DNA of 64,000 nt from Centroscyllium fabricii (lineage: Eukaryota): the NCBI GenBank assembly GCA_051313645.2, contig JBNRSN020000016.1:58776001-58840000 (forward strand). The letters are read 5' to 3'. The notes under the pieces were generated by a model. The model searched no databases, was not told the origin of the DNA, and was given only the letters and a program-made list of their open reading frames with translations. Numbering within the stretch: the first letter of the stretch is position 1; the number at the start of each line of letters is the position of its first letter. Position numbers and translations under genes: made by a program. Shown here piece by piece: positions 3,131 to 64,000 of this stretch.

Positions 3131-3477
3131 CAGCGGTCCCCACCCTTTTTTGGACCGCGGACCATTTTGGGCTAGTCAATTTTTTCGCGGACCGGGTGGG
3201 GTGCTGGCGGAGTTTTTTTCACTGACCGGGGGGGGGTGCTGGCGGAGTTTCTTTCAATGACCGGGGGGGCTGCTGGCGGAGGTTTTTTCACTGACCGGGG
3301 GGGGGTGCTGCCGGAGTTTTTTTTCACTGAGCGGGGGGTTGCTGGCGAGGGTTTTTTGACAGTTAAACGGCTTCCGTCTGTGCCTCGTTAAACGTCAAAA
3401 GCGTTGTTTTAAACGAGGCACAGACTCTTCCGCGGACCGGTAAAAATGTCCCGCGGACCGGCGGTTGGGGACCGCTG
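3131..3477. mobile_element. hAT (Charlie-type) MITE
   Basis: TIRs CAGCGGTCCCCA / TGGGGACCGCTG; 8-bp TSD AATTACAC (3123-3130, 3478-3485); internal ~34-bp tandem repeats. Confidence 0.88.
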
Positions 3478-8238: not shown

Positions 8239-8488
8239 TGTTTTCCCGCATTTGGTCCGTAGCCTTGTATGCTGCGGCATTTCAAGTGCTCATCCAAATG
8301 CTTTTTGAATGTTGTGAGGGTTCCCACCTCTACCACCCTCTCAGGCAGTGAGTTCCAGACTCCAACCACCCTCTGGGTGAAAAAGTTCTTCCTCACATCC
8401 CCAAGATACCTCCTGCCCCTTACCCTGAAATTATGCCCCCTCGTTATTGACCCCTCAACCAAGGGAAAAAGTTCCACTCCATCCACCC

Positions 8489-8746
8489 TGTAACCTTCAA
8501 TAACGTCCACGGAGTCGTGTAGTAGATTAGAACAATCAGGCTTTTATTGACTACAGTAAGAATGCACACCAGCAAGCTGACTGTCCCCTAGAATGACATG
8601 GGGGATGGGGGCAGTCACTTATATACTCCCTCCAGCGGGGGAGTCGTGGGCGGAGCCAGGTATGCTCCATGTATCACAGTGGAATGCATTACAGGTATGG
8701 GTTACATGGTGATTAACTATATACAGTGATATACACGTTTATCACA
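8489..8746 (-). repeat. Gypsy 3' LTR (258 bp)
   Basis: Direct repeat of 14639-14897; TATA and AATAAA on the - strand. Confidence 0.95.
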
Positions 8747-9080
8747 TTCACCCCTTCTTTAAGAACGAAAATACAGCGGGGTGAAGGACTAACAATTACA
8801 AAGGTGATCAGAAAAATATATATATATACAAACGCAGTTCTTATGATTACAAGTTTAATCTATCAGGCGCTCCCCCAGCCGAGTCTTTCAGGTGGTTTGG
8901 TTGTCCGCGTCGATCTTCGCACCGCTGGTGGTGCCTGTGGTGTTCGTGGTCGTGGAGCGGCTGGTTGTGTCTGTTGCTCCATTGATGCCGGTCGACTAGT
9001 GGTGGTTATGTTACTTCTGGGTGGCGGTGGTGCCCTTATTCTGACAGCAGGGGGCGCGTTCTCTCCTTCGTCCTCTGACT

Positions 9081-10982
9081 CTAGGGGGCGCGCGCTGTGG
9101 ATCCAAGCTTGGGGCCAGGTCGTGCTGCTCGCAGGTGCCTTGAGCATACTGGGGCCACGTGTCGGGGAGCGTACTTCGGCTTCGGCGGCATGGGGCGCGT
9201 CACAGGACATTTTGGGTGCGCGACCTGCTGGGCGGGGCTTCTTGGGGGCTCGGGCTGCCTGGCGGGGCTGGGCTTTGGGACTCCTGCTGGGGCTAGGTCC
9301 TTTATGGACACGGTGTCCTCCCTCCCATCTGGGAACGCTATGTAAGCGTACTGGGGATTTGCGTGCAGGAGGTGGACCCGTTCGACTAGGGGATCTGCCT
9401 TGTGTCCCCTCACATGCTTCCGAAGCAGGACCGGTCCCGGAGATAGTAGCCACGATGGTAGCGAGGTCCCGGAAGCCGACTTCCTGGGGAAGGCAAAAAG
9501 TCGTTCGTGAGGGGTGGCATTGGTGGCAGTACAGAGGAGGGACCGAATAGAGTGGAGGGCTTCGGGGAGGACGTCCTGCCATCGGGTGACTGGGAGATCT
9601 TTAGACCGTAGGGCTAACTGGATGGCTTTCCAGACAGTGGCGTTCTCTCTCTCTACCTGCCCGTTCCCCCGGGGGTTGTAGCTGGTAGTCCTGCTAGTCG
9701 CGATGCCTTTCGCTAGCAGGAACTGGCGCAGCTCGTCGCTCATAAAAGAGGTCCCCCGGTCACTATGGATATAGTTGGGGTACCCGAACAGGGAGAAAAT
9801 GCTATTGAGAGCCTTGGTGACGGTGGCGGAGGTCATGTCCTGGCAGGGAATAGCGAAGGGGAAGCGGGAGTACTCATCTATCACGTTAAGGAAGTACACA
9901 TTCCTATTAGATGAGGGAAGGGGCCCTTTAAAATCGACACTGAGTCGTTCAAAGGGGCGAGTGGCCTTGATCAAGTGCGCCCGGTCTGGCCGGTAGAAGT
10001 GCGGCTTGCACTCCGCGCAGACCTGGCAGTTGCTGGTCATGGTCTTGACCTCCTCGATGGAGATGGGGAGGTTGCGGGACATCACAAAGTGAACCAACCT
10101 GGTGACCCCCGGGTGGCAGAGGTCATTGTGGAGAGTTTGGAGATGGTCAGCCTGTGCGCTGGCACAGGTACCGCGGGATAGGGCATCTGGGGGTTCGTTA
10201 AATATCCCGGGCCGGTACAAGATATCATAACTGAACGCAGATAGTTCAATTCTCCACCTTAATATCTTGTCGTTCTTTATTTTACCCCGTTCTTTGTTAT
10301 TAAACATGAATGCGACTGATCGTTGGTCAGTCAACAGGGTAAAACGTTTGCCGGCCAGGTAGTGCTTCCAGTGCCGCACTGCTTCAACGATGGCCTGGGC
10401 CTCCTTCTCGACTGAGGAATGGCGGGTTTCGGGGCCTTGGAGGGTACGTGAAAAGAAGGCCACGGGTCTGCCCGCCTGGTTAAGGGTGGCGGCCAGGGCG
10501 AAGTCCGATGCATCGCTTTCCACTTGGAATGGGACGGACTCATCTACCGCGTGCATCGTGGCTTTGGCAATGTCGTTTTTAATTCTGCAGAATGCCGAGT
10601 TGGCTTCTGCAGAAAGGGGGAAAGAGGTCGATTTAAGTAGTGGGCGAGCTTTGTCCGCATAATTGGGGACCCACTGGGCGTAATAAGCAAAAAATCCCAA
10701 ACACCGTTTAAGAGCTTTGGGGGAGTGGGGGAGGGGAAGCTCCATGAGGGGGCGCATGCGGTCCGGGTCTGGACCGATGACTCCATTCTCCACCACGCTG
10801 CCGAGGATGGCCAGGCGGGTGGTACTAAACACACATTTCTCCTTGTTATATGTTAGGTTCAGGGTTTTGGCCGTGTGGAGAAATTTTTCGAGATTGGCGT
10901 TATGGTCCTGCTGATCATGGCCGCAGATGGTCACATTATCAAGGTACGGGAAGGTCGCTCGCAGCCCGTACCGATCAACCAT
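9081..10982 (-). pseudogene. Gypsy pol, 3' part (RT C-terminus, RNase H, integrase)
   Basis: 633-aa ORF; the typical RRSTR..PPERL end lies in another frame (8863-9582), implying a late frameshift. Confidence 0.9.
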
Positions 10983-10983
10983 T

Positions 10984-12786
10984 CATAGAAACATAGAAAC
11001 ATAGAAAATAGGTGCAGGAGTAGACCATTCGGTCCGTCGAGCCTGCACCGCCATTCAATACGTTCATGGCTGAACACAAGAACACAACACAATAGCACAA
11101 GAACAGAAGACACAAGAACACAGGAACACAAGAACACTAGAACCCCAGAAATAGGAGCAGGAGTAGGCCATCGGCCCCCCGAACCCGCCCCCTCCCCATC
11201 AAGATCGTTGCTGATCCTACCTAACCTTCGTACCACTATCACCCTTCTCCCACCCAAAGAACCGTGTGATCTCCTGGGAGAGGCGAAAAACCGGATAAAA
11301 ACCCAGGTCCAATTTGGGAAAATAAATCCGGGAAATTCCTCTCCGACCCCAGTCCAGGCGATCGAAACTTGTCCAGGAGATCACTCAGGTCTTACTATAC
11401 TAACCATAACTCAGGTCCACTTCCCTGCCCGCTCCCCGTAACCCTTAATTCCCTTGTCAGCTAAAAAACAGTCTATTTCGGTTTTAAATTTATTTAATGT
11501 TCCCGCTTCCACAGCTCCCTGGGGCAGTGAATTCCATAGATTAACCACCCTCTGGGTGAAGAAGTTTCTCCTCATCTCGGTTTTAAAAGAGCCCCCCCTT
11601 ATTCTAAGACTATGCCCCCTAGTTCTGGTCTCCCCGATCATTGGAAACATCCTTGGCGCATCCACCCGATCAAGGCCCCTCACGATCTTATACGTTTCAA
11701 TAAGATCGCCTCTCATTCTTCTGAACTCTAAAGAGTAGAGTCCCAACCTACTTAACCTTTCCTCATATGTCAACCCCCTCATCGCTGGAATTAACCGTGT
11801 AAACCTTCTCTGCACTGCCTCCAGGGCAAGTACATCCTTTCTTAAGTATGGACACCAAAACTGCACACAGTATTCCAAATGCGGTCTCACCAATACTGTG
11901 TACAGCTGCAGCAAGACCTCCCTGTTTTTATACTCTATCCCCCTAGCAATAAAGGCTAAGACTCCATTGGCCTTCCTAATCACTTGCTGCACCTGCATAC
12001 TAACTTTTTGTGATTCATGCACTAATACCCCCAGGTCCCTTTGCGCTGTATTACAACGCAGCTCCTCCCCATTTAGAAAATAACTTGCCCTATGATTTTT
12101 TTTTCCAAAGTGTATAACTTCACATTTGTCAGTATTAAATTTCATCTGCCAGGTTGCTGCCCAATCACCTAGCTTATCTATATCCTTTTGCAGGCTTTTT
12201 CTGTCCTCCTCACTCCCTGCTTTTCCTCCCATTTTTGTGTCATCTGCAAACTTTGATATATTACACTTGGTCCCCTCCTCCAAATCATTTATATAGATTG
12301 TAAACAGCTGGGGTCCCAGCACCGACCCCTGCGGAACACCGCTAGTCACCGATTGCCATCCCGAGTATGAACCATTTATCCCAACTCTCTGCTTCCTGTT
12401 TGAAAGCCAATCCTCTACCCATGCTAATATATTTCCCCCAATCCCATAATTTTTATTTTAAGCAAAAGTCTCTTATGTGGCACCTTGTCAAAAGCCTTTT
12501 GGAAGTCCAAGTATACCACATCCATCGGTTCCCCTTTATCGACCCGAGATGTTACTTCCTCAAAGAATTCGAGCAAATTAGTTAAACATGACTTCCCCTT
12601 CGTAAAACCATGCTGACTCTGTCCGATTAAGTCATGTTTATCCAAGTGCCCCGTCAGTGTTTCTTTAATAATGGTCTCTAACATTTTACCCACCACAGAT
12701 GTTAGACTAACCGGTCTATAGTTACCAGCCTTCTGTCTACTTCCCTTTTTAAATATAGGTGTTACATTAGCCATTTTCCAATCCAC
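10984..12786 (-). mobile_element. 5'-truncated CR1 inserted in the Gypsy RT, with a doubled 3' tail
   Basis: CR1 RT motifs (DWKMANVTPIFKKG ... ERAGKWT), 3'UTR, TTCTTGTG-type tail followed by a second tail ending (TTTCTATG)n. Confidence 0.93.
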
Positions 12787-14619
12787 CGAGACCCCGTTTG
12801 TGACGCCAAACGGCACCCTAAGGAAGTGGTAGAGGCGACCGTCAGCCTCAAAGGCTGTATAAAGACGGTCCTCTGGGCGGATGGGAAGCTGGTGATAAGC
12901 CGATTTTAAATCTATTGTGGAGTACACTTTAAATTGGGCAATTTGGTTCACCATGTCTGCTATCCGGGGGAGGGGGGAGGCATCTAGTTGGGTGAACCGG
13001 TTTATGGTCTGGCTGTAATCCACTACCATCCTATTCTTCTCTCCGGTTTTTACTACCACTACCTGTGCTCTCCAGGGGCTATTACTGGCCTCTATGACCC
13101 CCTCTTTTAGGAGGCGCTGCACCTCAGATTTTATAAATACCATGTCCCCAGCACTGTAGCACCTACTTTTGGTGGCGACGGGCTTACAGTCTGGGGTGAG
13201 GTTGGCAAAGAGAGATGGAGGGGCAACCTTAAGGGTTGAGAGGCCACAGGTAGTGTACTGGGGGTACCGCCTTGAGCCGCGGTTTCTGACCGTGAGTGAG
13301 GGAAGGGGTCTGCCAAATGCCATAGTAACGCTCTGAAGGTGGCACTGGAAGTCCAGTCCCAGGAGTAGGGGGGCGCAGAGCTGCGGCAGCACGTAAAAAC
13401 TAAAGTCATTAAACATTGCGCCCTGTACTTTAAGCGTTACAATACAGCGCCCGGTGACGTCAGCGGATTCTGACTTGGACGCCATAGATATTCTCTGGCG
13501 CGCAGGGATTACTTTAAGGGAGAGGCGCTTTACGGTATTTCGGTGAACAAAACTTACTGTGCTCCCACTGTCGAACAGGCACACCACCTCTTCACCGTTA
13601 ACCGGCATCATCGATTTCTCCAGTGGTTGAATCTTCCTCTGGTCTAGGCTCGTCGATGCTAGCACAGGGTCCTCCGAGTTATCGTGATCCGGAGAATAGT
13701 CCTCCAAGTCTGCTCCCCAAAATGGCTGCCGCCATGTGTTGGGCTGTGGAGGCTGAGTCAAAGATGGCCGCTGTTGCTGCGGCTGCCACGAGGGCTGCTG
13801 AGTGGGGGATGGGTGAGTCCAATGTGGCTGCTCCCCTGTTCCACACGCAGCGCTGCCCAGTTTAGATTTAAAGTTAGTGTTTTTACAGACCTTTGAATAA
13901 TGTCCCTTCTGGTCGCATTTTGAGCAGGTCGCTTCTCTAGCAGGGCAGCTGCGTCTTGTGTGTTGAGGTTGCCCACAAAAGTAGCATCTAGCTTTAGCGT
14001 GGGCAGCGGTGAGTAGTTCTTCTGCCGGTCGTTGCGCCAGCGCTGTCCAAGCTTGCGGGGCTGGGCCCGTATAATTACTTGAATATGACGATAAGTCCGT
14101 TGATGCGCTATCCAGCGCGTGTCCCAAGTCTGTGGTCGCCTGTAAGTCCTGGCCGTTCTGCTCCAGCAGTCTCTGTCTGGCATAGTCCGATTTTAGACCA
14201 GTTACATAGGCGTCTCTGATGAGGCTCTCCATATGAACTTGAGCCGTTTGCGCTCTGCAGTCACAGTCCCGTGCCAGCACTCTGAGGGCTCTTAGGAACT
14301 GCACACTCAATTCGTTATTTTGCTGCTTTCTAGTAGCGAGTATGTGTCTCGCGTGGACTATGTTCGGTGCCCGCTTATATTCCGCCTCGAGGAGCCTGAT
14401 GGCCTCTTGGAACGATGGGGCGTCCACTGTCATGGAGTACACTTGAGGGCCCACCCGGGCGTTGAAGAGTCGCCGTTTTTGCTCCTCGGTTACTATGACC
14501 GCCGCGTTGGCTCTGATGTACCCTTCGAGCACGTTTCGCCAGTGTGAGAAGGCGTTTGCTGCTCCTGAAGATCGGGGGTCAACTTCGAACACTGCTGGTT
14601 TAATCATTGAGGTATCCAT
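12787..14619 (-). pseudogene. Gypsy gag-protease-RT 5' part
   Basis: ORF 12424-14619 begins MDTSMIKP, contains CYFCGQPQH / CSKCDQKGH knuckles, DSGS and RT motifs, then runs in frame into the inserted CR1. Confidence 0.9.
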
Positions 14620-14638
14620 TTCTAGTAGTCAATAAAAT

Positions 14639-14897
14639 TGTAACCTTCAATAACGTCCACGGAGTCGTGTAGTAGATTAGAACAATCAGGCTTTTATTGA
14701 CTACAGTAAGAATGCACACCAGCAAGCTGACTGTCCCCTAGAATGACATGGGGGATGGGGGCAGTCACTTATATACTCCCTCCAGCGGGGGAGGAGTTGT
14801 GGGCGGAGCCAGGTATGTTCCAGGTATCAGTGGAATGCATTACAGGTATGGGTTACATGGTGATTAACTATATACAGTGATATACACGTTTATCACA
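14639..14897 (-). repeat. Gypsy 5' LTR (259 bp)
   Basis: Direct repeat of 8489-8746. Confidence 0.95.
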
Positions 14898-17221
14898 CAC
14901 CCTATCTATTCCCCTCATAATTTTGTACACCTCAATCAGGTCTCCCCTCAGCCTCCTCTGCTCCAAGGAAAACAACCCCAGCCTCTTCAGTCTCTCTTCA
15001 TAGCTGAAGTTCACCAGCCCAGGCAGCATCCTGGTGAATCTCCTCTGCACCCTCTCCAAAGCTATTACATCCTTCCTATAGTGTGGCGACCAGAACTGCA
15101 CACAGTACTCCAGCTGTGGTCTTACCAGCGTTTTGTACAGCTCCATCATAACCTCCCTGCTCTTATATTCTATGCCTCGGCTAATGATGGCAAGTATCTT
15201 GTATGCCTTTTCAACCACCTTTTCCACCTGCCCTGCTGCCTTCAGGGACCTATGTACCTGCACACCAAGGTTCCTCTGTCCTCCCTTGCCATGTTAGACC
15301 TACTGAAATGCATCACCCTCACACTTTTCAGGATTAAATTCCTTTTGCCACTGTTCCTCCCATCTTACCAACTCATCTATGTCGTCCTGCATGTTGCGGA
15401 TTTCCTCCTCGTTATTTACCAACCCCCCAACTTTTGTGTCATCTGCAAACTTACTGATCATGCCTTTTACATTAATATCTAAATCATTTAATATAGACTA
15501 TAAAGAGCAAGGGACCCAACACCGATCCCTGCGGTACCCCACTGGACACAGGCTTCCAGTCACAAAAACAACCTTCGACCATCACCCTCCTGTCACTAAG
15601 CCAGTTTTGGATCCACTGTGCCAAGGTGCCCTGGATCCCATGGGCTCTTACCTTCTTGACCAGTCTCCTATGCGGGACCTTATCAAAAGCCTTACTAAAA
15701 TCCATGTATACCACATCCACTGCACTTCCCTCATCCACAACCTGGTCACCCCCTCAAAAAATTCAATAAAATTAGTCAGAAATGATCTTCCCTTGACGAA
15801 GCCATGTTGACTATCCTTAATTAATCCTTGCCTCTCCAAGTGGAGACTAATTCTGTCCCTCAGGATTTTTTCTAGTAATTTCCTCACCACTGATGTCAGG
15901 CTCACCGGCCTGTAATTCCCTGGTTTCTCCCTACTACCTTTCTTGAATAATGGCACTACATTGGCCATTCTCCAGTCCTCGGGCACATCCCCTGTGGCCA
16001 GAGAGGTTCTGAAAATTTGTGTCGGAGGCCCCTGCAATCTCTCCTTAGCCTCACCCAGCAGCCTGGGATACATCTCGTCAGGGCCTGGAGACTTATCCAC
16101 TTTTAAGCCTGCTGAAACAGCTTGTACCTCCTCCCCGTCAATACTAATATGATCAAGTGTATCGCATTCCTCCTGTCTTATTTCTATGTCCACATCGCCC
16201 TTCTCCACAGTGAACACAGATGCAAAAAATTCATTCAAAGCCCCATCTACACCCTCAGGCTCTACCAGATTACCACGTTGGTCCCTAATGGGCCCCACCC
16301 TTTCCCTCATTATCCTCTTGCCTTTCATATACTTATAAAACATCTTAGGATTTTGTTTTATTTTGCCGCCAGGGTTATCTCATGGCCCCCTCTTCCTCTC
16401 CTAATCTTTTTTAAGTAACCCCCTGCATCTTCTATACTCCTCTAGAGCCTCCTCTGTCTTTAGTTCTTTGTCTGCCGAAAGCCCCCCTTTTTTTCCAAAT
16501 CAATTCACATATATCCCTTGACATCCAAGGTTCCCTGGGCTTATTGGTCCCACCCTTGACCTTCAGGGGAACATGTTTCCCTTGTACTTTCTCAATTTCC
16601 CTTCTGAACGCCTCCCACTGTTCTGATGCGGACTTTCCTTTGAGTAGCTGGTCCCAGTCCACTTGGGCCAGCTCCTGCCTTATATTAAAATCGGCCTTGC
16701 CCCAATTTAGAACCTTTATTTCTGGTCCATCGTTGTCCTTTTCCTCACTGTCCCCAAAGTGCTCTGCTACTGACACTTTTCCCTTGCCCGTCCTCATTTC
16801 CCAGAATTAAGTCTAATACCACCGCCCCCTCCTTGTAGGACTACCTACATACTGGATCAAAAAAACTTCTTGTAGTAGAGGTTAAAATGTTAATTGGGAT
16901 AGATTTTGTAAACTCGGTAGGTGACTTTGCAGCAAGGAAAATGTTAGGTAATTCGCCTTCCACTGCAGTGAATTGTGGCTGTGAGCCATCAATAAACATA
17001 AGGAGTGAACAACTTCAATACTTAAAGCAAGAGAGAAATGCTGATTTTTCACTGCCTGCCTCTTTCCCCACCATAATTTCCCCTGGTGGTTCCATCAACA
17101 CTCTGAGTTTTTGCACAATGGCCATTCTTCATGTGAGCCTGGACAACAAAAACTACTTCAATTCATGGGAAACAATTCCAAGGCGCTGCTCCATTGGTAG
17201 GATCATGCATACAGTAGATGT

Positions 17222-24794: not shown

Positions 24795-27700
24795 GGTAGT
24801 GGAAAAGAGGGAGGTCATAGGAAGCCAGAAACAAATGGTAGGAAGGTGAGAAACAATAAGCAAGGGAGAGAAACACAAAGGGCCAAACAAATTCATAATA
24901 GTGTGATCAAAACAAGCCTAAAGGCTTTGTATCTTAATGCAAGAAGCATTAGGAACAAGGTGGATGAACTAGCTGTGGAAATAGAGGTAAGCAAATATGA
25001 GTTGATTGGAATTACGGAAACATGGCTGCAGGGGGGGCAAGGCTGGGAACTCAACATCCCGGGGTATACAACATTCAGAAAGGATCGGCACAAAAGAAAG
25101 GGAGGTGGGGTGGCATTGCTGGTGAAAGAGGGGATAAATGCAATTGAAAGGAAGGATATTAACTCAGATGATACGGAATCTATATGGGTAGAACTAAGAA
25201 ATAGTAAAGGGCGGAAAACATTAGTGGGAGTTATATACACAGGCCTCCAAATAGTAATATGGAGGTGGGGGACGGCATAAAAAGGGAAATTAGAGAAGCT
25301 TGCAATAAGGGCACAGCTGTCGTCATGGGCGACTTTAATCTACATATTGATTGGACTAGCCAAGTTAGTAAAAATACTGAGGAGGAGGAATTCCTAGAAT
25401 GTCTACGGGATGGGCATCTGGACCAATATGTCGAGGAACCAACTCGGGATCAGGCCATCTTAGACTGGGTATTGTGCAATGAGAAGGGACTAATTAACAA
25501 TCTCGTTGTACGAGGCCCCTTGGGTCGGAGCGATCATAATATGATCGAATTCTCAGTTGAGATGGAAAGTGAAAAGATCAACTCAGAGACTAAGGTCCTG
25601 AATTTAAATAAAGGGAATTATGAAGGTATGAGAAGGGAATTAAGCAAGATAGATTGGGCAGTGTTCCTGGGGGGATTGAATGTGGATAGACAATGGCAAG
25701 CATTCAAGTATAGGATGGAAGAAATACAGAACTCGTTCATACCGGTTTGGCATAAGAATAAACCTAGAAAGGTGACTCAACCGTGGATAACAAGGGAAAT
25801 AAGGGACAACATTAAATCCAAAAAATGGGCATATCAATTGGCCCAAAAAAGTACTAGGCCGGAAGATTGGGAGCAGTTCAGGATACAGCAAAGGAAGACA
25901 AAGGGATTAATCAGGAGGGGGAAGATAGATTATGAATGTAAGCTTGCGGCAAACATAAAAACTGACTGCAAAAGCTTTTATAGGTACATCAAGAGGAAAA
26001 GATTGGTAAAATCCCAAGTCGGTCCCTTGCAGTCCGATTCAGGGGAATATATAATGGGGAATAAAGAAATGGCAGACCAACTAAATTCATATTTTGGTAC
26101 TGTCTTCACAAAGGAGGACACAAGCAACCTCCCAGGGATAGCAGCGAACATAGGGTCCAATGCAAGGGAGGAGCTGACAGATATCAGTATTTCTAGGGAG
26201 ATGGTTTTGGGGAAGTTGAAGGGATTGAAGGCCGACAAATCCCCAGGGCCTGATAATCTACATCCTAGGGTACTTAAAGAGGTAGCCCCGGAAATAGAGG
26301 GTGCATTAAGGATCATTTTCCAGAACTCAATAGACTCTGGATCAGTACCCACGGATTGGAGGGTGGCTAATGTTACCCCACTATTTAAAAAGGGGGGCAG
26401 AGAGAAAGCAGGGAATTATAGACCAGTAAGCCTTACATCAGTAGTGGGCAAAATGCTCGAGTCCATCATCAAGGATGTAATCTCGGAGCATTTGACAAGT
26501 AGGGATGAGATCGGACAGAGTCAACATGGGTTTACAAAAGGTATATCATGTTTAACTAATCTATTGGAATTCTTTGAGGAAGTAACTCGGAAAATAGATG
26601 GGGGAGAGCCAGTAGATGTGGTGTACCTTGACTTCCAGAAAGCTTTCGATAAGGTTCCACATAAAAGATTAGCATGTAAAATTAAGGCTCATGGGATTGG
26701 GGGCAAAGTTTTGATGTGGATAGAGAACTGGTTGGCAGACAGAAAACAGAGAGTTGGAATTAACGGCTCGTTTTCTGGGTGGCAGCCGGTGACTAGTGGA
26801 GTACCGCAGGGGTCTGTCCTGGGACCTCAGCTGTTTACAATATATATTAATGATCTGGATCAGGGAATTGAATGTAATATCTCCAAATTCGCGGACGACA
26901 CCAAACTAGGAGGGGGGGCAGGCTCTGAAGAGGGTGTCAGGAAGTTACAGGGCGATTTGGATAAGTTGGGGGACTGGGCAGATAGATGGCAGATGCACTA
27001 TAATGTGGATAAATGTGAGGTTATCCACTTTGGGGGCAAAAACAGGAGGGCAGATTACTACTTAAATGGCAATAGATTGGGAGATGGGGAGGTGCAGAGA
27101 GACCTGGGTGTTCTTGTGCACCAGTCGCTGAAGGCGAGCACGCAGGTGCAGCAGGCGGTTAGGAAGGCAAATGGTATGTTGGCCTTCATATCAAGAGGGT
27201 TCGAGTATCGGAATAAGGATACCTTACTGCAGCTGTACAAGGCACTGGTGAGACCACACCTCGAGTACTGTGTACAGTTCTGGTCGCCTCGCCTGAGGAA
27301 GGATGTTCTTTCCATGGAAGGAGTGCAGCGGCGTTTCACCAGGCTGATTCCTGGAATGGCAGGAATGACCTACGAGGAGAGATTGTGTAGTCTGGGCTTG
27401 TACTCGTTGGAGTTTAGAAGATTGAGAGGCGATCTCATTGAGACGTATAAAATTCTGAAAGGTCTGGACAGGTTAGATTCAGAGAGAATGTTTCCAATGG
27501 CGGGGGAGTCCAGAACCAGGGGCCACAGTCTAAGGATAAGGGGTAAACCATTTAGGACAGACATGAGGAAGAATTTCTTCACTCAGAGAGTGGTGGGCCT
27601 GTGGAATTCCCTGCCACAGAGGGCGGTGGAGGCCAGTTCATTAAACATATTCAAGAGGGAATTGGATATATTTCTTCAAGCTAAAGGGATTAAAGGTTAT

Positions 27701-27828
27701 GGAGAAAAGGCGGGGACGGGGTACTAGCTTGCTAAAGATCAGCCATGATCTCATTGAATGGCGGAGCAGGCTCGAAGGGCTGAATGGCCTACTCCTGCTC
27801 CTATCTTCTATGATTCTATGATTCTATG
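24795..27828 (+). mobile_element. Near-intact CR1 ORF2 (APE endonuclease + RT) with 3' tail, antisense in the last FANCA intron
   Basis: NARS, ITETWL, GDFN and SDH endonuclease motifs; 822-aa open RT ORF 25259-27727; one frameshift at ~25238; (ATTCTATG)n tail. Confidence 0.95.
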
Positions 27829-43440: not shown

Positions 43441-45210
43441 GTTTCATCATCCTACCAATATTCAGCACCTTGCACTGATCTGCATTGAATTTCATCTGCT
43501 ACTGATTTCCCAATTGCTGATTGTATCCCAACTGCTTTTGCAGGTCACTGGCTGTGTTGTCAGTCTCAACAACTCACCCCCATCTCATTTGACGTCACAG
43601 TTGAATTCTTGGCACTTGCATATGGAGAAGAGCAGAAGGACTGAGGATTTTTTTGAAGTCACCAAATATTTCTAGGCAGGAATTTTTTTACTGTTTTTTT
43701 TTAAACTTACAAATGTGGGTCTCTGTGAATTTATGCTCGAGTGTGAACATGTTTTTATGCTTGTAAGAGAGTACAAGAGTGAGTTTCTGCTGGGATCAGA
43801 GTGGGTTTGCTAGTGCGAGTTACAGGAACAGTCTTCCCCAGCCCCAAGTCTACTCCCTCCACCCGTGTACATGGCCCCCATCATGGAAATCATACACTTG
43901 AGTTATTGAATTTTACTAATAACGAAAACAAAAAACTGATAGTTATGTCAGTTTATAATACGTTATATATCTAAGATTGTAACTCTGCAGCAAGCCTGTG
44001 ACATTGCTGAGGGGTTTATGCTAATCAACATGAACCAATTATGGTTCCATGTGCCAATTACATCCTCAAGAATACACAAGGTAACATTGATTATGCTGCT
44101 TAATTTTAGCTTTTTTAAAAAAAAGTTATCTTTAGTTTTTCCTCTCATGCAACAAGGCCCCAACCCACTTATCTTGTCGCTGCTGCTTGATAGGAATCGT
44201 TGTCTGTTCCTGCTCTTCCTATTGCCAGGAAATGCTGCCAATTCTTTTTCACAAGACAGATAGATATATAGTCAACCTATCTGAGCTTATCCATCCAGAA
44301 TATTCCACCCATCACATCATCTTACTCTCTCAAGTTTAAGATTTTTGTTTGCCCTGAACTTTCCTTTCACCAGTTTTTGAGCATTGCCCCTTTGTTCTCA
44401 TATATTGACACACATTGAAATAGAGCTCGAGATTAACCTCATCAATGCCTTTTAATGACTTATATACTTCTGCAAGGGGGAAGGAGTCCCTTTTCAGTCT
44501 CCGCCTTTCGAGACTGCAGCGTTCCATTTTCCCCAGTCCTTACTCACAATTTAGTCCTTTGACGCCAGTCTTGTCGCTCTTCTCTATAGCCTCACCACGG
44601 CTTGAGTGCTTCCCTTAGACTTGGTGACTAAAACTGAACTCAGGGTGCATTCTGACCAGGGCTCTACTATAATTAGGCACTCTATTCACTTTATTATACT
44701 GCTCTGCAGCAATTTGACACATTAAATGTCAAATCTGCCATCACATTCCTACCTCTCTGTGCTTAAGCTTTACCCGTTTCATCATCCTACCAATATTCAG
44801 CACCTTACACTGATCTGCATTGAATTTCATCTGCTACTGATTTCCCAATTGCAGACTGTATCCCAACTCCTTTTGTAGGTCACTGGCTGTGTTGTCAGTC
44901 TCAACAACTCACCCCCATCTCATTTGACGTCACAGTTGAATTCTTGGCACTTGCATACGGAGAAGAGCAGAAGGACTGAGGATTTTTTTTGAAATCACCA
45001 AATATTTCTAGGCAGGAATTTTTTTTTTTTTTAAACTTACAAATGTGGGTCTCTCTGTGAATTTATGCTCGAGTGTGAACATGTTTATATGCTTGTAAGA
45101 GAGTACAAGAGTGAGTTTCTGCTGGGGTCAGAGTGGGTTTGCTAGTGCGAGTTACAGGAACAGTCTTCCCCAGCCCCAAGTCTACTCCCTCCACCCGTGT
45201 ACATGGCCCC
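43441..45210 (+). repeat. ~435-bp direct duplication (43441-43878 and 44776-45210)
   Basis: Two near-identical copies ~1.3 kb apart. Confidence 0.9.
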
Positions 45211-46311
45211 CACCCCCACCTCCCATTACCTCCTTAGCAAACAGGAGAAGCAATATCATTTCTACAGTTAACATGGGGTTGAGTTTGGGTCCAGAACTCT
45301 GACCGAGTTGAAAAGAAAAGGGGAAAAAATCCTTTTAAAGGGGGCTACGGGAGAATTGGACATAAAAAGGTCGAGGAGAAACAAAGAGGAGAAACTGAGA
45401 AAACAGTTGCGGATAAGCAAAGAAATACAATAGACAGTATGAGCACGGCAGAGAGAGAAGAAGTAAAATTGTTCAAGAACAAAAGACAAATGGTGAGAAG
45501 TCAACAAAGAATTAAGAGAGTAGGAGCCAATCAGACAGAGAGTCACTAGAACAGCGAGACGGGTATTTTTTTCTCTCCCTGAGGATTGCAAGAGATCAGC
45601 TGCCACATTATAAAAATTAGTAAATGCACAATCTCAGGGTTCAGATGGCAGTTTTAATTTACTCAATATTTACTCACACTATTTAGGAATGCCTATAAAG
45701 AAAAGCGAGCAATTAGAAAAGTGAAAAACAAAACAGCATAAGTGCACGAAAGGCTAGGAACAAGAGAGCAGTCCACACCAGTGAGATCATAGCTTTTGAT
45801 ACAGTGCCTTGCAGACTGACATGATTTTGTTTAGTATCACCCCTGTGGATGATGGAACAGCGGAACAGTTGAACCAAAATCTAGAAATAAAAAGCTGGTA
45901 TCAGTAAAAAAAAAGTGACCATGAAGCCATCAGATTGCCATAAAAACCCAACTGGTTTGCTAATGTCCTTTAATGAACAAAACCGGTTGCCCTTACCTGG
46001 TCTGGCCTATATGTGACTTCAGTCTCACACCAATGTGGTTGCTTTTTAACTGCCCTCTGAAGTGGCCCAGCAAGACACTTCGCTATATCAAACTTTACAG
46101 GGTATCTCAGGATGGGCAATACTTGGTGGCCTTGGCAGTGATGTCCACATCCCAAGAATTAATTTAAATGTAAAATGTAAGTTATCAGAACGGAAAATTA
46201 TGCAACGGTCTTGCAATTTGTTCCAACTGTATGTTAAAGAATGTGACGTTGTGCAGCACACATTTTACTCATACTGAACAGGAGAGTAATAATCAGAACT
46301 GGATTGCTTAC

Positions 46312-52492: not shown

Positions 52493-53210
52493 GAGTCATA
52501 GAGTTATGCAGCACAGAAAGAGGCCCTTCAGCCCATCGCGTCCGTGCCGGTCATCAAGCCCGGTCTATTCTAATTCCATTTTCCAGCACTTGGTCCGTAG
52601 CCTTGTATGTTATGGCATTTCAAGTGCTCATCTAAATGCTTCTTGAATGTTGTGCGTGTTCCTGCCTCTACCACCCTTCCAGGAAGTGAGTTCCAGATTC
52701 CAACCACCCTCTGGGTGAAAAAGTTCCTCCTCAAATCCCCTCTAAACCTCCTGCCCCTTACCTTGAAGCTATGCCCCCTGGTTATTGACCCCTCTACCAA
52801 GGGAAAAAGTTCCTTTCTATCTACCCTATCTATGCCCCTCATAATTTTGTACACCTCAATGAGGTCCCCACTCAGCCTACTCTGCTCCAAGGAAAACAAC
52901 CCCAGCCTCTCCAGTCTCTCTTCATAGCTGAAGCACTCCAGCCCAGGTAACATCCAGGTGAATCTCCTCTGCACTCTCTCCAAAGCAATCACATCCCTCC
53001 TTTCGTGTGGTGACCAGAACTGCACACGGTACTCCAGCTGTGGCCTTACCAGCGTTTTGTACAGCTCCATCATAACCTCCCTGCTCTTATATTGTATGCC
53101 TCGTCTAATGAAGGCAAGTATCCCATATGACTTTTTAAACCACCTGTCCTGCTGCCTTCAGGGATCTATGTACATGCACACCAAGGTCCCTCTGATCCTC
53201 TGTCTTTCCT
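52493..53210 (-). mobile_element. 5'-truncated CR1
   Basis: ORF 52570-53073 with CR1 C-terminal motifs; tail. Confidence 0.88.
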
Positions 53211-62763: not shown

Positions 62764-63430
62764 AAACACAATCTGGAGTAATACAATTTTTATTTTCACT
62801 AACGACAGAATATAATTTATGAGAAAAAAAAAATCAAACTTAGAATGAGAACAGGCCAATGGGCTCATCAAACCGCTCAGTCCATAGTCCATGCATGACT
62901 ATCTTAATCATGACTCTTTTACTTTTTCCACCAGGGCGCGACAAAAACCGCTTGCCCGGGGCAAGTAAAATGCGCCATCGGGCAAGCAGAAGAAAATTTC
63001 ACTTGCCCGACCGGGCAAGTGCAATCATGATCGAGGCCATGGGAACGGGTGGTTGGATCCCGCCCTGGAGGCGGCTGCGGATGGGCCGGGCGCGCTTCGG
63101 CCGATGGGTTTGGAACTCTGCCCGAGCTCATCCAATCACAGCACAGCAGTTTTCTCATGCTCCCGCGGTTTTGAAGCGCTGCGCCCCACCCCCTGCCCAT
63201 GCTCGGCCAATCATAGAGCACTCCGGCTGCCCACCCGCCGCTCGGCGCTGCAGCAGCTCGAACCGAGCAGGAAAGCGAGGGTGATTAGCAAAATATTGCA
63301 GATGCTGGAAATCCGAAATAACAACAGAAAATGCTGGAAAAACTCAGGCAGCATCGATGGAGAGAAACATAGAGTCGATAGAAAAATATAGAAGCCCCGC
63401 TTCGTCCTGCTGCCCCCCCCCCCCCCCCCC

Positions 63431-64000
63431 GGGGAGTGTCCTACCGCGCGCTCCGGGCCCCGGGGAGTGTCCTACCGCGCGCTCCGGGCCCCGGGGAGTG
63501 TCCTACCGCGCGCTCCGGGCCCCGGGGAGTGTCCTACCGCGCGCTCCGGGCCCCGGGGAGTGTCCTACCGCGCGCTCCGGGCCCCGGGGAGTGTCCTACC
63601 GCGCGCTCCGGGCCCCGGGGAGTGTCCTACCGCGCGCTCCGGGCCCCGGGGAGTGTCCTACCGCGCGCTCCGGGCCCCGGGGAGTGTCCTACCGCGCGCT
63701 CCGGGCCCCGGGGAGTGTCCTACCGCGCGCTCCGGGCCCCGGGGAGTGTCCTACCGCGCGCTCCGGGCCCCGGGGAGTGTCCTACCGCGCGCTCCGGGCC
63801 CCGGGGAGTGTCCTACCGCGCGCTCCGGGCCCCGGGGAGTGTTCTACCGCGCGCTCCGGGCCGCGGGGAGTGTTCTACCGCGCGCTCCGGGCCCCGGGGA
63901 GTGTTCTACCGCGCGCTCCGGGCCCCGGGGAGTGTTCTACCGCGCGCTCCGGGCCCCGGGGAGTGTTCTACCGCGCGCTCCGGGCCCCGGGGAGTGTTCT
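63431..64000 (+). repeat. 31-bp GC/CpG-rich minisatellite (GGGGAGTGTCCTACCGCGCGCTCCGGGCCCC)n, ~18 copies, running off the window
   Basis: Head-to-tail units with no spacers. Confidence 0.97.

Follow-up and report, generated by a model that had tools for sequence, protein, structure and literature searches.

Covarying complementarity between the LTR and the primer-binding position points to tRNA-independent self-priming in a Mag-like Ty3/Gypsy clade

A Ty3/Gypsy element in the window analysed here (the whole stretch of 64,000 nt) very probably primes its reverse transcription without a tRNA, by self-priming of some form. At the primer-binding position (PBS) the element carries the reverse complement of a 13-nt segment, or arm, of its own LTR. 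Judged from the sequences compared, this self-priming signature is real, clade-wide and strongly covarying. The form that we favour, and that is probably correct, is self-priming by an internal primer, a capped RNA of ~53 nt with 13 paired bases that would be cut directly after the arm. LTR elements are generally held to prime with a tRNA, and the exception that has been tested is that of the Tf1-like chromoviruses. If our reading is right, a widespread animal clade with relatives in a ray, a sea anemone, an isopod and a nematode represents a further origin of self-priming. Such a clade would be missed by annotation that seeks tRNA sites, and it might escape control by tRNA 3' fragments.

Structure of the element

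The element occupies the minus strand from 14897 to 8489 (Table 1) and belongs to a young, Mag-like family. It has the features of a Ty3/Gypsy LTR retrotransposon, namely LTRs with TG..CA ends, a target-site duplication, a polypurine tract and the domain order PR-RT-RH-IN. A sequence-only reading of the same DNA had ended the 5' LTR at 14639, which is borne out by comparison with the 3' LTR and by the GGGTG duplication that both flanks share. It had also placed the gag ATG 20 nt from the LTR, and the ATG is indeed found at 14619, behind a leader of 19 nt. The element inserted into an older CR1-like LINE, since the sequence on either side of it matches the CR1-like copy at 52579-53122. The window copy is not intact; its RT is broken by another CR1-like LINE. 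The catalytic motif of the RT reads YLDN (10945-10934, minus strand), and YxDN replaces YxDD in 68 of 129 proteins of relatives. Young copies of this family number in the thousands.

Table 1. Features of the element and its flanks in the window
Feature	Position	Strand	Basis
Target-site duplication GGGTG, 5 bp	14898..14902, twin 8484-8488	-	Sequence; flanks both LTRs
5' LTR, 259 nt, TG..CA	14639..14897	-	Repeats 8489-8746 directly, 96.9% alike, 3 mismatches and 2 gaps
TATA-like box TATATAA, predicted promoter	14769..14775	-	Sequence
Motif TCATTC, which we take to be initiator-like; A at 14744 is the predicted transcription start	14741..14746	-	31 nt past TATA
13-nt LTR arm, candidate self-primer; AATAAA at 14698-14693; predicted cut after 14692	14692..14704	-	Pairing and covariation
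53-nt loop, remaining R and U5; opens with conserved RCC, able to close a short stem	14639..14691	-	
Lone unpaired A separating LTR end from PBS	14638	-	Invariant in 23/23 rows of alignment A2
PBS, reverse complement of the arm, without TGG	14625..14637	-	Exact match
gag (double zinc knuckle), protease and initial part of RT, single frame	12785..14619	-	Translation, domain scan
CR1-like LINE interrupting RT	10984..12784, limits approximate	-	Repeat comparison, translation
Remainder of RT (YLDN motif), RNase H, integrase; no chromodomain hit	9081..10983	-	Domain scan
Polypurine tract	8747..8760	-	Sequence
3' LTR, 258 nt, with second copy of the arm at 8554-8542	8489..8746	-	Direct-repeat comparison

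Pairing of the LTR arm with the PBS in the window copy

The sequence-only reading had claimed that the 13 nt beginning 1 nt past the LTR are a perfect complement of 14704-14692. We found the match to be exact over 14637-14625, with the two segments 54 nt apart, and the PBS is complementary to the copy of the arm in the 3' LTR as well. The same reading was right that a tRNA-type PBS is absent, as no TGG was found in the 19-nt leader, and that the LTR arm contains an AATAAA. It had further proposed a TATA at ~14770, ~65 nt upstream of the paired segment; a TATA-like box is present there, and only its place needs correction, to a start at 14775, 71 nt upstream of the arm.

In a chance control, the longest complement to the leader found among 5,000 dinucleotide shuffles of the LTR was 11 nt (2/5,000), and 13 nt was never reached. 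The 13-bp duplex is present in both the MFE and the centroid folds of 14770-14600 (z = -2.89), and 2 of 200 shuffled sequences were equally stable. Assembled contigs from four read sets (X1-X3 and X5) span this region, with PBS variants at 14630. Two apparent ends, that of an X5 contig starting 3 nt ahead of the arm and that of a locus (L038) starting at the arm, were considered as transcript starts and rejected, because repeat-related assembly breaks can mimic such ends.

Copies and subfamilies in the host genome

A two-motif pattern matched 4,489 5'-LTR junctions in the 7.2-Gb host genome, while the control gave 0. The best 30 copies, that of the window included, do not differ from one another in either arm. 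We read 89 of 100 listed junction places, omitting 8 tandem neighbours and 3 overlapping hits from the earlier copy search; the 89 copies are the first listed on one contig and thus a non-random draw. Since the pattern fixed pairs 1-7, only pairs 8-13 were free to vary among them. Pairing was complete (13/13) in 83 copies, 2 had one G-U and 4 had mismatches. At pair 8, C/G was found in 25 copies and G/C in 64, with no crossed combination, and in the window family this swap looks like a single event.

Both LTRs could be compared with the PBS in some copies. Among 20 longer stretches, that of L247/L271 has a variant of pair 13 that is alike in the 5' LTR, the 3' LTR and the PBS, its LTRs being 99.65% alike; L247 represents a distinct haplotype, perhaps a small subfamily. 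Unmatched variants were present in one place only in L273, L274 and L277, the only three copies with a mismatch or a G-U in which both LTRs belonging to the copy could be read. Searches with the gag of two relatives revealed two further host families with the same design and more letter variants. In an older host family the pairing has decayed, with 19 of 30 copies keeping at least 12 bp, 6 keeping 8-10 bp and 5 broken or crossed. The arm and the PBS come from different subtypes in L112 and L172.

At least nine different PBS 13-mers occur within this one host, each tracking its own LTR. This result, like the lack of TGG in the leader, argues against priming by a host tRNA fragment or other small RNA with the LTR match incidental, a reading that we consider very improbable. 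Half-tRNA primers do exist in Ty1/copia lineages, according to the available part of PMC6317226. The host tRNA set was barely sampled, and the 11 distinct genes sampled (Lys and Cys only) match the PBS by at most 4 nt. A search of Rfam gave no match near the cut-off, the sole match, with E 0.78, being far under it.

Other irregularities were seen among the host copies. In L123, an older copy, an inversion of ~28 nt, identified by eye, flips the LTR end and the PBS around the gag start. The 5' and 3' LTRs of L287 are from two subfamilies and 89% alike, probably through recombination between copies. Just inside the gag of a window-family copy (L276), a further subfamily is nested whose own arm and PBS pair perfectly. 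On one host contig, copies lie in tandem at ~4.36-kb spacing (100032674-100045816), and a cluster of copies at ~50-100-kb spacing shares one U5 variant (111739002-112042111). These tandem and clustered copies are tandem arrays or segmental duplications.

Covariation across the clade

A search for relatives gave 904 proteins at E 0.001 among 8,000 candidates, not all of them of this clade. Named relatives are from a ray (the nearest named protein relative), a sea anemone, an isopod and a nematode; with a ray as the source of the nearest, the host is probably a cartilaginous fish. The cross-species DNA compared here comes from metagenome contigs. Of 70 metagenome loci, we examined 30 that reach the gag start and saw the pairing in 24. 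Upstream sequence is replaced or broken in two of the other six (L035, L064), and the contig starts too near gag in four (L054, L061, L062, L071); for L054 and L062 a match was found at the opposite contig end. By eye, a pyrimidine tract followed by CAG, resembling a splice or trans-splice acceptor, is present 15-60 nt before the arm in several non-host families (L054, L062, L065, L076 and L077).

Families and subfamilies were aligned in 23 rows (alignment A2), 11 from host-genome subfamilies and 12 from other hosts, related rows not being independent. The sequence-only reading had proposed covariation as a check of the pairing, and the outcome was positive: 295 of 299 cells pair (98.7%), and two-sided changes are seen at 9 of the 13 pairs and in 61 cells. 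Neither the paired share nor the covariation score of A2 was reached by any of 500 shuffles, and slid controls paired at 25-50%. RNAalifold returned the same 13 pairs and no others. Of the 299 cells, a single one holds a G-U pair, and swaps by transversion are frequent, a combination that would fit templated copying better than stepwise evolution of a stem. Twenty different PBS 13-mers are present in 22 families. They pair with their own LTR at 12-13 of 13 positions (mean 12.8), compared with 9.1 on average for the LTRs of other families, where 13 was reached in 3 of 462 comparisons; the PBS start and the loop length were chosen to maximise pairing, and the arms are thus located by it. The LTR end was fixed independently through the 3' LTR in 13 metagenome loci, and the two placements agree within 0-3 nt.

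The register of the pairing is the same in all 23 rows. The 3' end of the arm (AAA) stands opposite base 1 of the PBS, which is T in every row, and the LTR-CA, the A and the TTT are invariant. Conservation extends to the register, a G-C at pair 10 and RCC directly after the arm, but not to the poly(A) hexamer. In a scan of 290 loci that did not require RCC, this motif directly followed the arm in 210 of 215 hits (a hand count, duplicates included). A U5-IR-like stem beside the primer duplex is a feature of the Tf1/sushi group. Here, a stem from the RCC after the cut would have at least 4 bp in 13 of 23 rows, compared with 6.1 expected, and is weak and absent from the consensus fold. The self-priming class is recognised in the available part of PMC6317226 by a covarying LTR complement of at least 10 bp that starts 0-5 nt after the LTR. 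The complement described here, which covaries and extends over 13 bp after a single A, fits this signature.

The poly(A) signal in the arm

The sequence-only reading had also suggested that the duplex masks the promoter-proximal poly(A) signal, and this suggestion stands in part. In each of the 11 host-genome subfamilies of A2 the arm retains AATAAA or ATTAAA, and where one of these has replaced the other the PBS shows the matching change (L132, L135). However, 6 of 23 rows, all of them from the 12 families of other hosts, have an arm without the canonical hexamer, and two of these, L033 and L034, carry it in the unpaired loop instead. Masking would thus be at most secondary. We believe that hiding of the AATAAA at the 5' LTR is a plausible, if rather doubtful, by-product in this host and not the core function.

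It is improbable that the duplex merely hides this signal or controls gag translation while priming takes another route. The retained hexamers and the mirrored switch agree with such a role, as does the fact that the duplex can form locally only at the 5' LTR. The arms without a hexamer argue against it, and neither a register fixed to the LTR end nor the near-absence of G-U would be needed. Moreover, 13 of the 19 leader bases are used by the pairing, which leaves no other primer site.

Predicted course of self-priming

We propose that the PBS is bound by the 13-nt LTR arm and that a cut right after the final AAA of the arm would yield a 3'-OH primer. As the 3' end of a primer must adjoin the LTR end, the AAA of the arm suits this role, and it is so placed in every family. 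Because the arm is internal to the LTR a cut would be required, as it is for Tf1, and it would presumably be made by the element's own RT/RNase H, as in Tf1. With an internal primer, RT or another nuclease must pick the cut within an RNA duplex junction (AAA, then RCC). Transcription would start near 14744, so that the arm forms approximately nt 41-53 of the RNA and the primer has a 40-nt unpaired 5' tail. The start, cut and poly(A) sites are predictions from sequence. Since the TATA-like box and the initiator-like motif predict a start at 14744, a 53-nt capped primer is favoured over a 5'-terminal one or a copy from the 3' R.

Minus-strand strong-stop DNA of 54 nt would then jump to the 3' R through the sequence between the cut and the poly(A) site, a predicted overlap that is short, ~20 nt in the model. 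The point of strand transfer could not be placed from marker linkage in 88 sequences. Plus-strand synthesis would copy the primer back into the PBS and so keep both arms letter-matched. Plus-strand DNA that ends in the PBS might fold back on the arm and be extended, giving rise to palindromic by-products.

The sequence-only reading had doubted a strict Tf1 geometry, and the doubt holds, as the predicted start is ~40 nt upstream of the arm. Under that geometry the packaged RNA would start at the arm and its first 13 nt would be the primer. Such a design is proven for Tf1, in which the primer consists of the transcript's initial 11 bases and is freed by an RNase H cut (PMC7175516, available part), and the sharp halt of pairing past 13-14 nt in most families is consistent with it. 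In Schizosaccharomyces pombe, Tf2 uses alternative start sites (PMC5341516, in the portion available), so promoter prediction can miss the relevant start. Nevertheless, the distance from TATA to the arm is 71-73 nt in 6 host subfamilies and 90-92 nt in 2 others, the initiator-like motif follows the TATA at the spacing given in Table 1, and a scan of 22 families showed no TATA-like motif ~30 nt ahead of the arm. We consider a start at the arm unlikely.

Fold-back copies

Two host copies carry inverted LTR sequence attached to the PBS. In one (L210/L270), a full-length copy with a target duplication, the PBS runs on for 84 nt as inverted LTR up to the TATA box, after which the normal leader follows. 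The other (L225) consists of the LTR, the A, the PBS and inverted R-U3 comprising everything upstream of the arm, to base 1 of U3, and has no gag-pol. This palindrome measures 522 bp, has TG..CA ends and is flanked by a 5-bp target duplication, GAAAG. The exact LTR ends and the target duplication of L225 indicate integrase, and the palindrome is therefore likely to predate insertion. Its structure points to extension of the arm-PBS pairing by reverse transcriptase before integration. By the simplest route, plus-strand strong-stop DNA ending in the PBS would fold onto its own arm and be extended by RT. The inverted copies reach beyond the predicted start, into the TATA box and into U3, and so could not arise simply by copying a 5' primer; an extra fold-back step would be needed. 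These copies support a primer of arm sequence and an RT that extends the arm-PBS duplex, the priming that they record being at the DNA level and not at the RNA level. Fold-back insertions offer a signature that needs DNA only and can be tallied for any genome.

The frequency of such copies rests on 2 of 89, from one contig. Both belong to one sublineage, as 2 of its 3 sampled copies, the third (L263) being normal. As the sublineage is shared, L210 and L225 may have one origin, and L225 may descend from an L210-like template.

The inverted parts of both copies hold the TATA box and U3, which are present only at the 3' end of the RNA. They are thus also in keeping with priming from the 3' copy of the arm, in which the RNA would be cut after the AAA of the 3' R, lose its poly(A) tail and pair by its new end with the PBS on a circularised genome. 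The 3' LTR bears an identical arm, and this route would leave 40 nt of upstream R for strand transfer instead of ~20 nt. On the other hand, the local partner, only 54 nt away, would be expected to pair first during transcription, and both ends of L225 coincide exactly with the start of U3, as would follow directly from fold-back of plus-strand DNA. Subfamily mosaics failed to separate the 5'-primer and 3'-copy models. We judge the 3'-copy route unlikely too, by a shade more than a start at the arm.

The internal primer can be set in a wider picture, which we offer as a tentative possibility. A large animal Gypsy clade unrelated to Tf1/sushi may have evolved self-priming independently, with its poly(A)-signal segment as the internal primer. 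The 13-bp switch would silence the 5' poly(A) site, mark the cut and be rewritten into the PBS in each cycle, leaving fold-back fossils, and the de-tailed 3' end of a circularised genome might possibly be involved.

Relation to known elements

Tf1 and Tf2 of S. pombe, Tj1 of S. japonicus and the Tf1/sushi chromoviruses are likewise Ty3/Gypsy elements in which the PBS complements their own R and a cut is needed for the 3'-OH, as described in the available parts of PMC7175516, PMC4600332 and PMC5341516. In contrast, the window clade has an arm of 13 nt with a poly(A)-signal-like AAA at its end, and the predicted place of this arm is internal instead of at the 5' end. The window clade also differs in its Mag-like gag and its integrated fold-back copies. 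Neither the domain scan of the window nor the precomputed domain annotation of the 120 best relatives showed a chromodomain. The element appears to work like Tf1, while membership in Tf1/sushi is not established by the RT tree, which gives only a separate long branch. Self-priming has also been predicted for Tcn1 chromoviruses and for TAR elements (Houba, Osr-1) of the Ty1/copia group, from at least 10 bp of LTR complementarity just past the 5' LTR. These belong to plant and fungal lineages, TAR is Ty1/copia, and the available part of PMC6317226, from which both points are taken, gives no link to a poly(A) signal. The fungal GalEa Copia elements (Conserved Hairpin Site) similarly have a conserved complementary pair at the PBS position and no tRNA PBS. 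However, the LTR lies upstream of both of their arms and was found to hold no complement, according to the portion of PMC5445492 available.

A profile of the clade (A1) could be aligned from gag to integrase, over 1,047 columns that include the double zinc knuckle, with a K02A2.6-like protein of a starfish (28% identity). The Atlas neighbours of the element's proteins are K02A2.6-like clusters, which we take to be Mag. The double zinc knuckle in gag is a feature of the Mag lineage, and its pattern is present in 118 of 129 proteins of relatives. The single gag-pol frame is also shared with that lineage (A, B and C/SURL clades, MolGy3, MolGy11). The window clade differs from its Mag relatives in an RT with PFG(V/I)TNG, and often YxDN, and in its long separate branch. 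That branch was seen against three long-branch outgroups in a tree that kept 16 of 21 chosen proteins, from which the K02A2.6-like protein was dropped and which held no labelled Tf1/sushi or Mag references. By its proteins the element appears Mag-like.

In the available text of Gypsy surveys of molluscs and annelids (PMC6238403, PMC8556966) the words PBS and primer are absent, and a term search of 5 of the 6 supplements of PMC6238403 came back blank. Within the portions of the open literature available, self-priming was found only for Tf1/sushi, Tj1, Tcn1 and TAR and not for this lineage, although an earlier description may exist in subscription papers, Repbase Reports or GyDB. A search of viral contigs gave no relative.

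Other repeats in the window

Direct repeats at 43441-43880 and 44776-45212, 1.33 kb apart, are 97-99% alike and represent either a small LTR-like element or a young duplication. A 31-bp tandem array is located at 63286-64000 and a G-rich repeat of 34-35 bp at 3180-3351. The DNA of an 839-aa open frame at 25208-27727 resembles the CR1-like repeats of the window.
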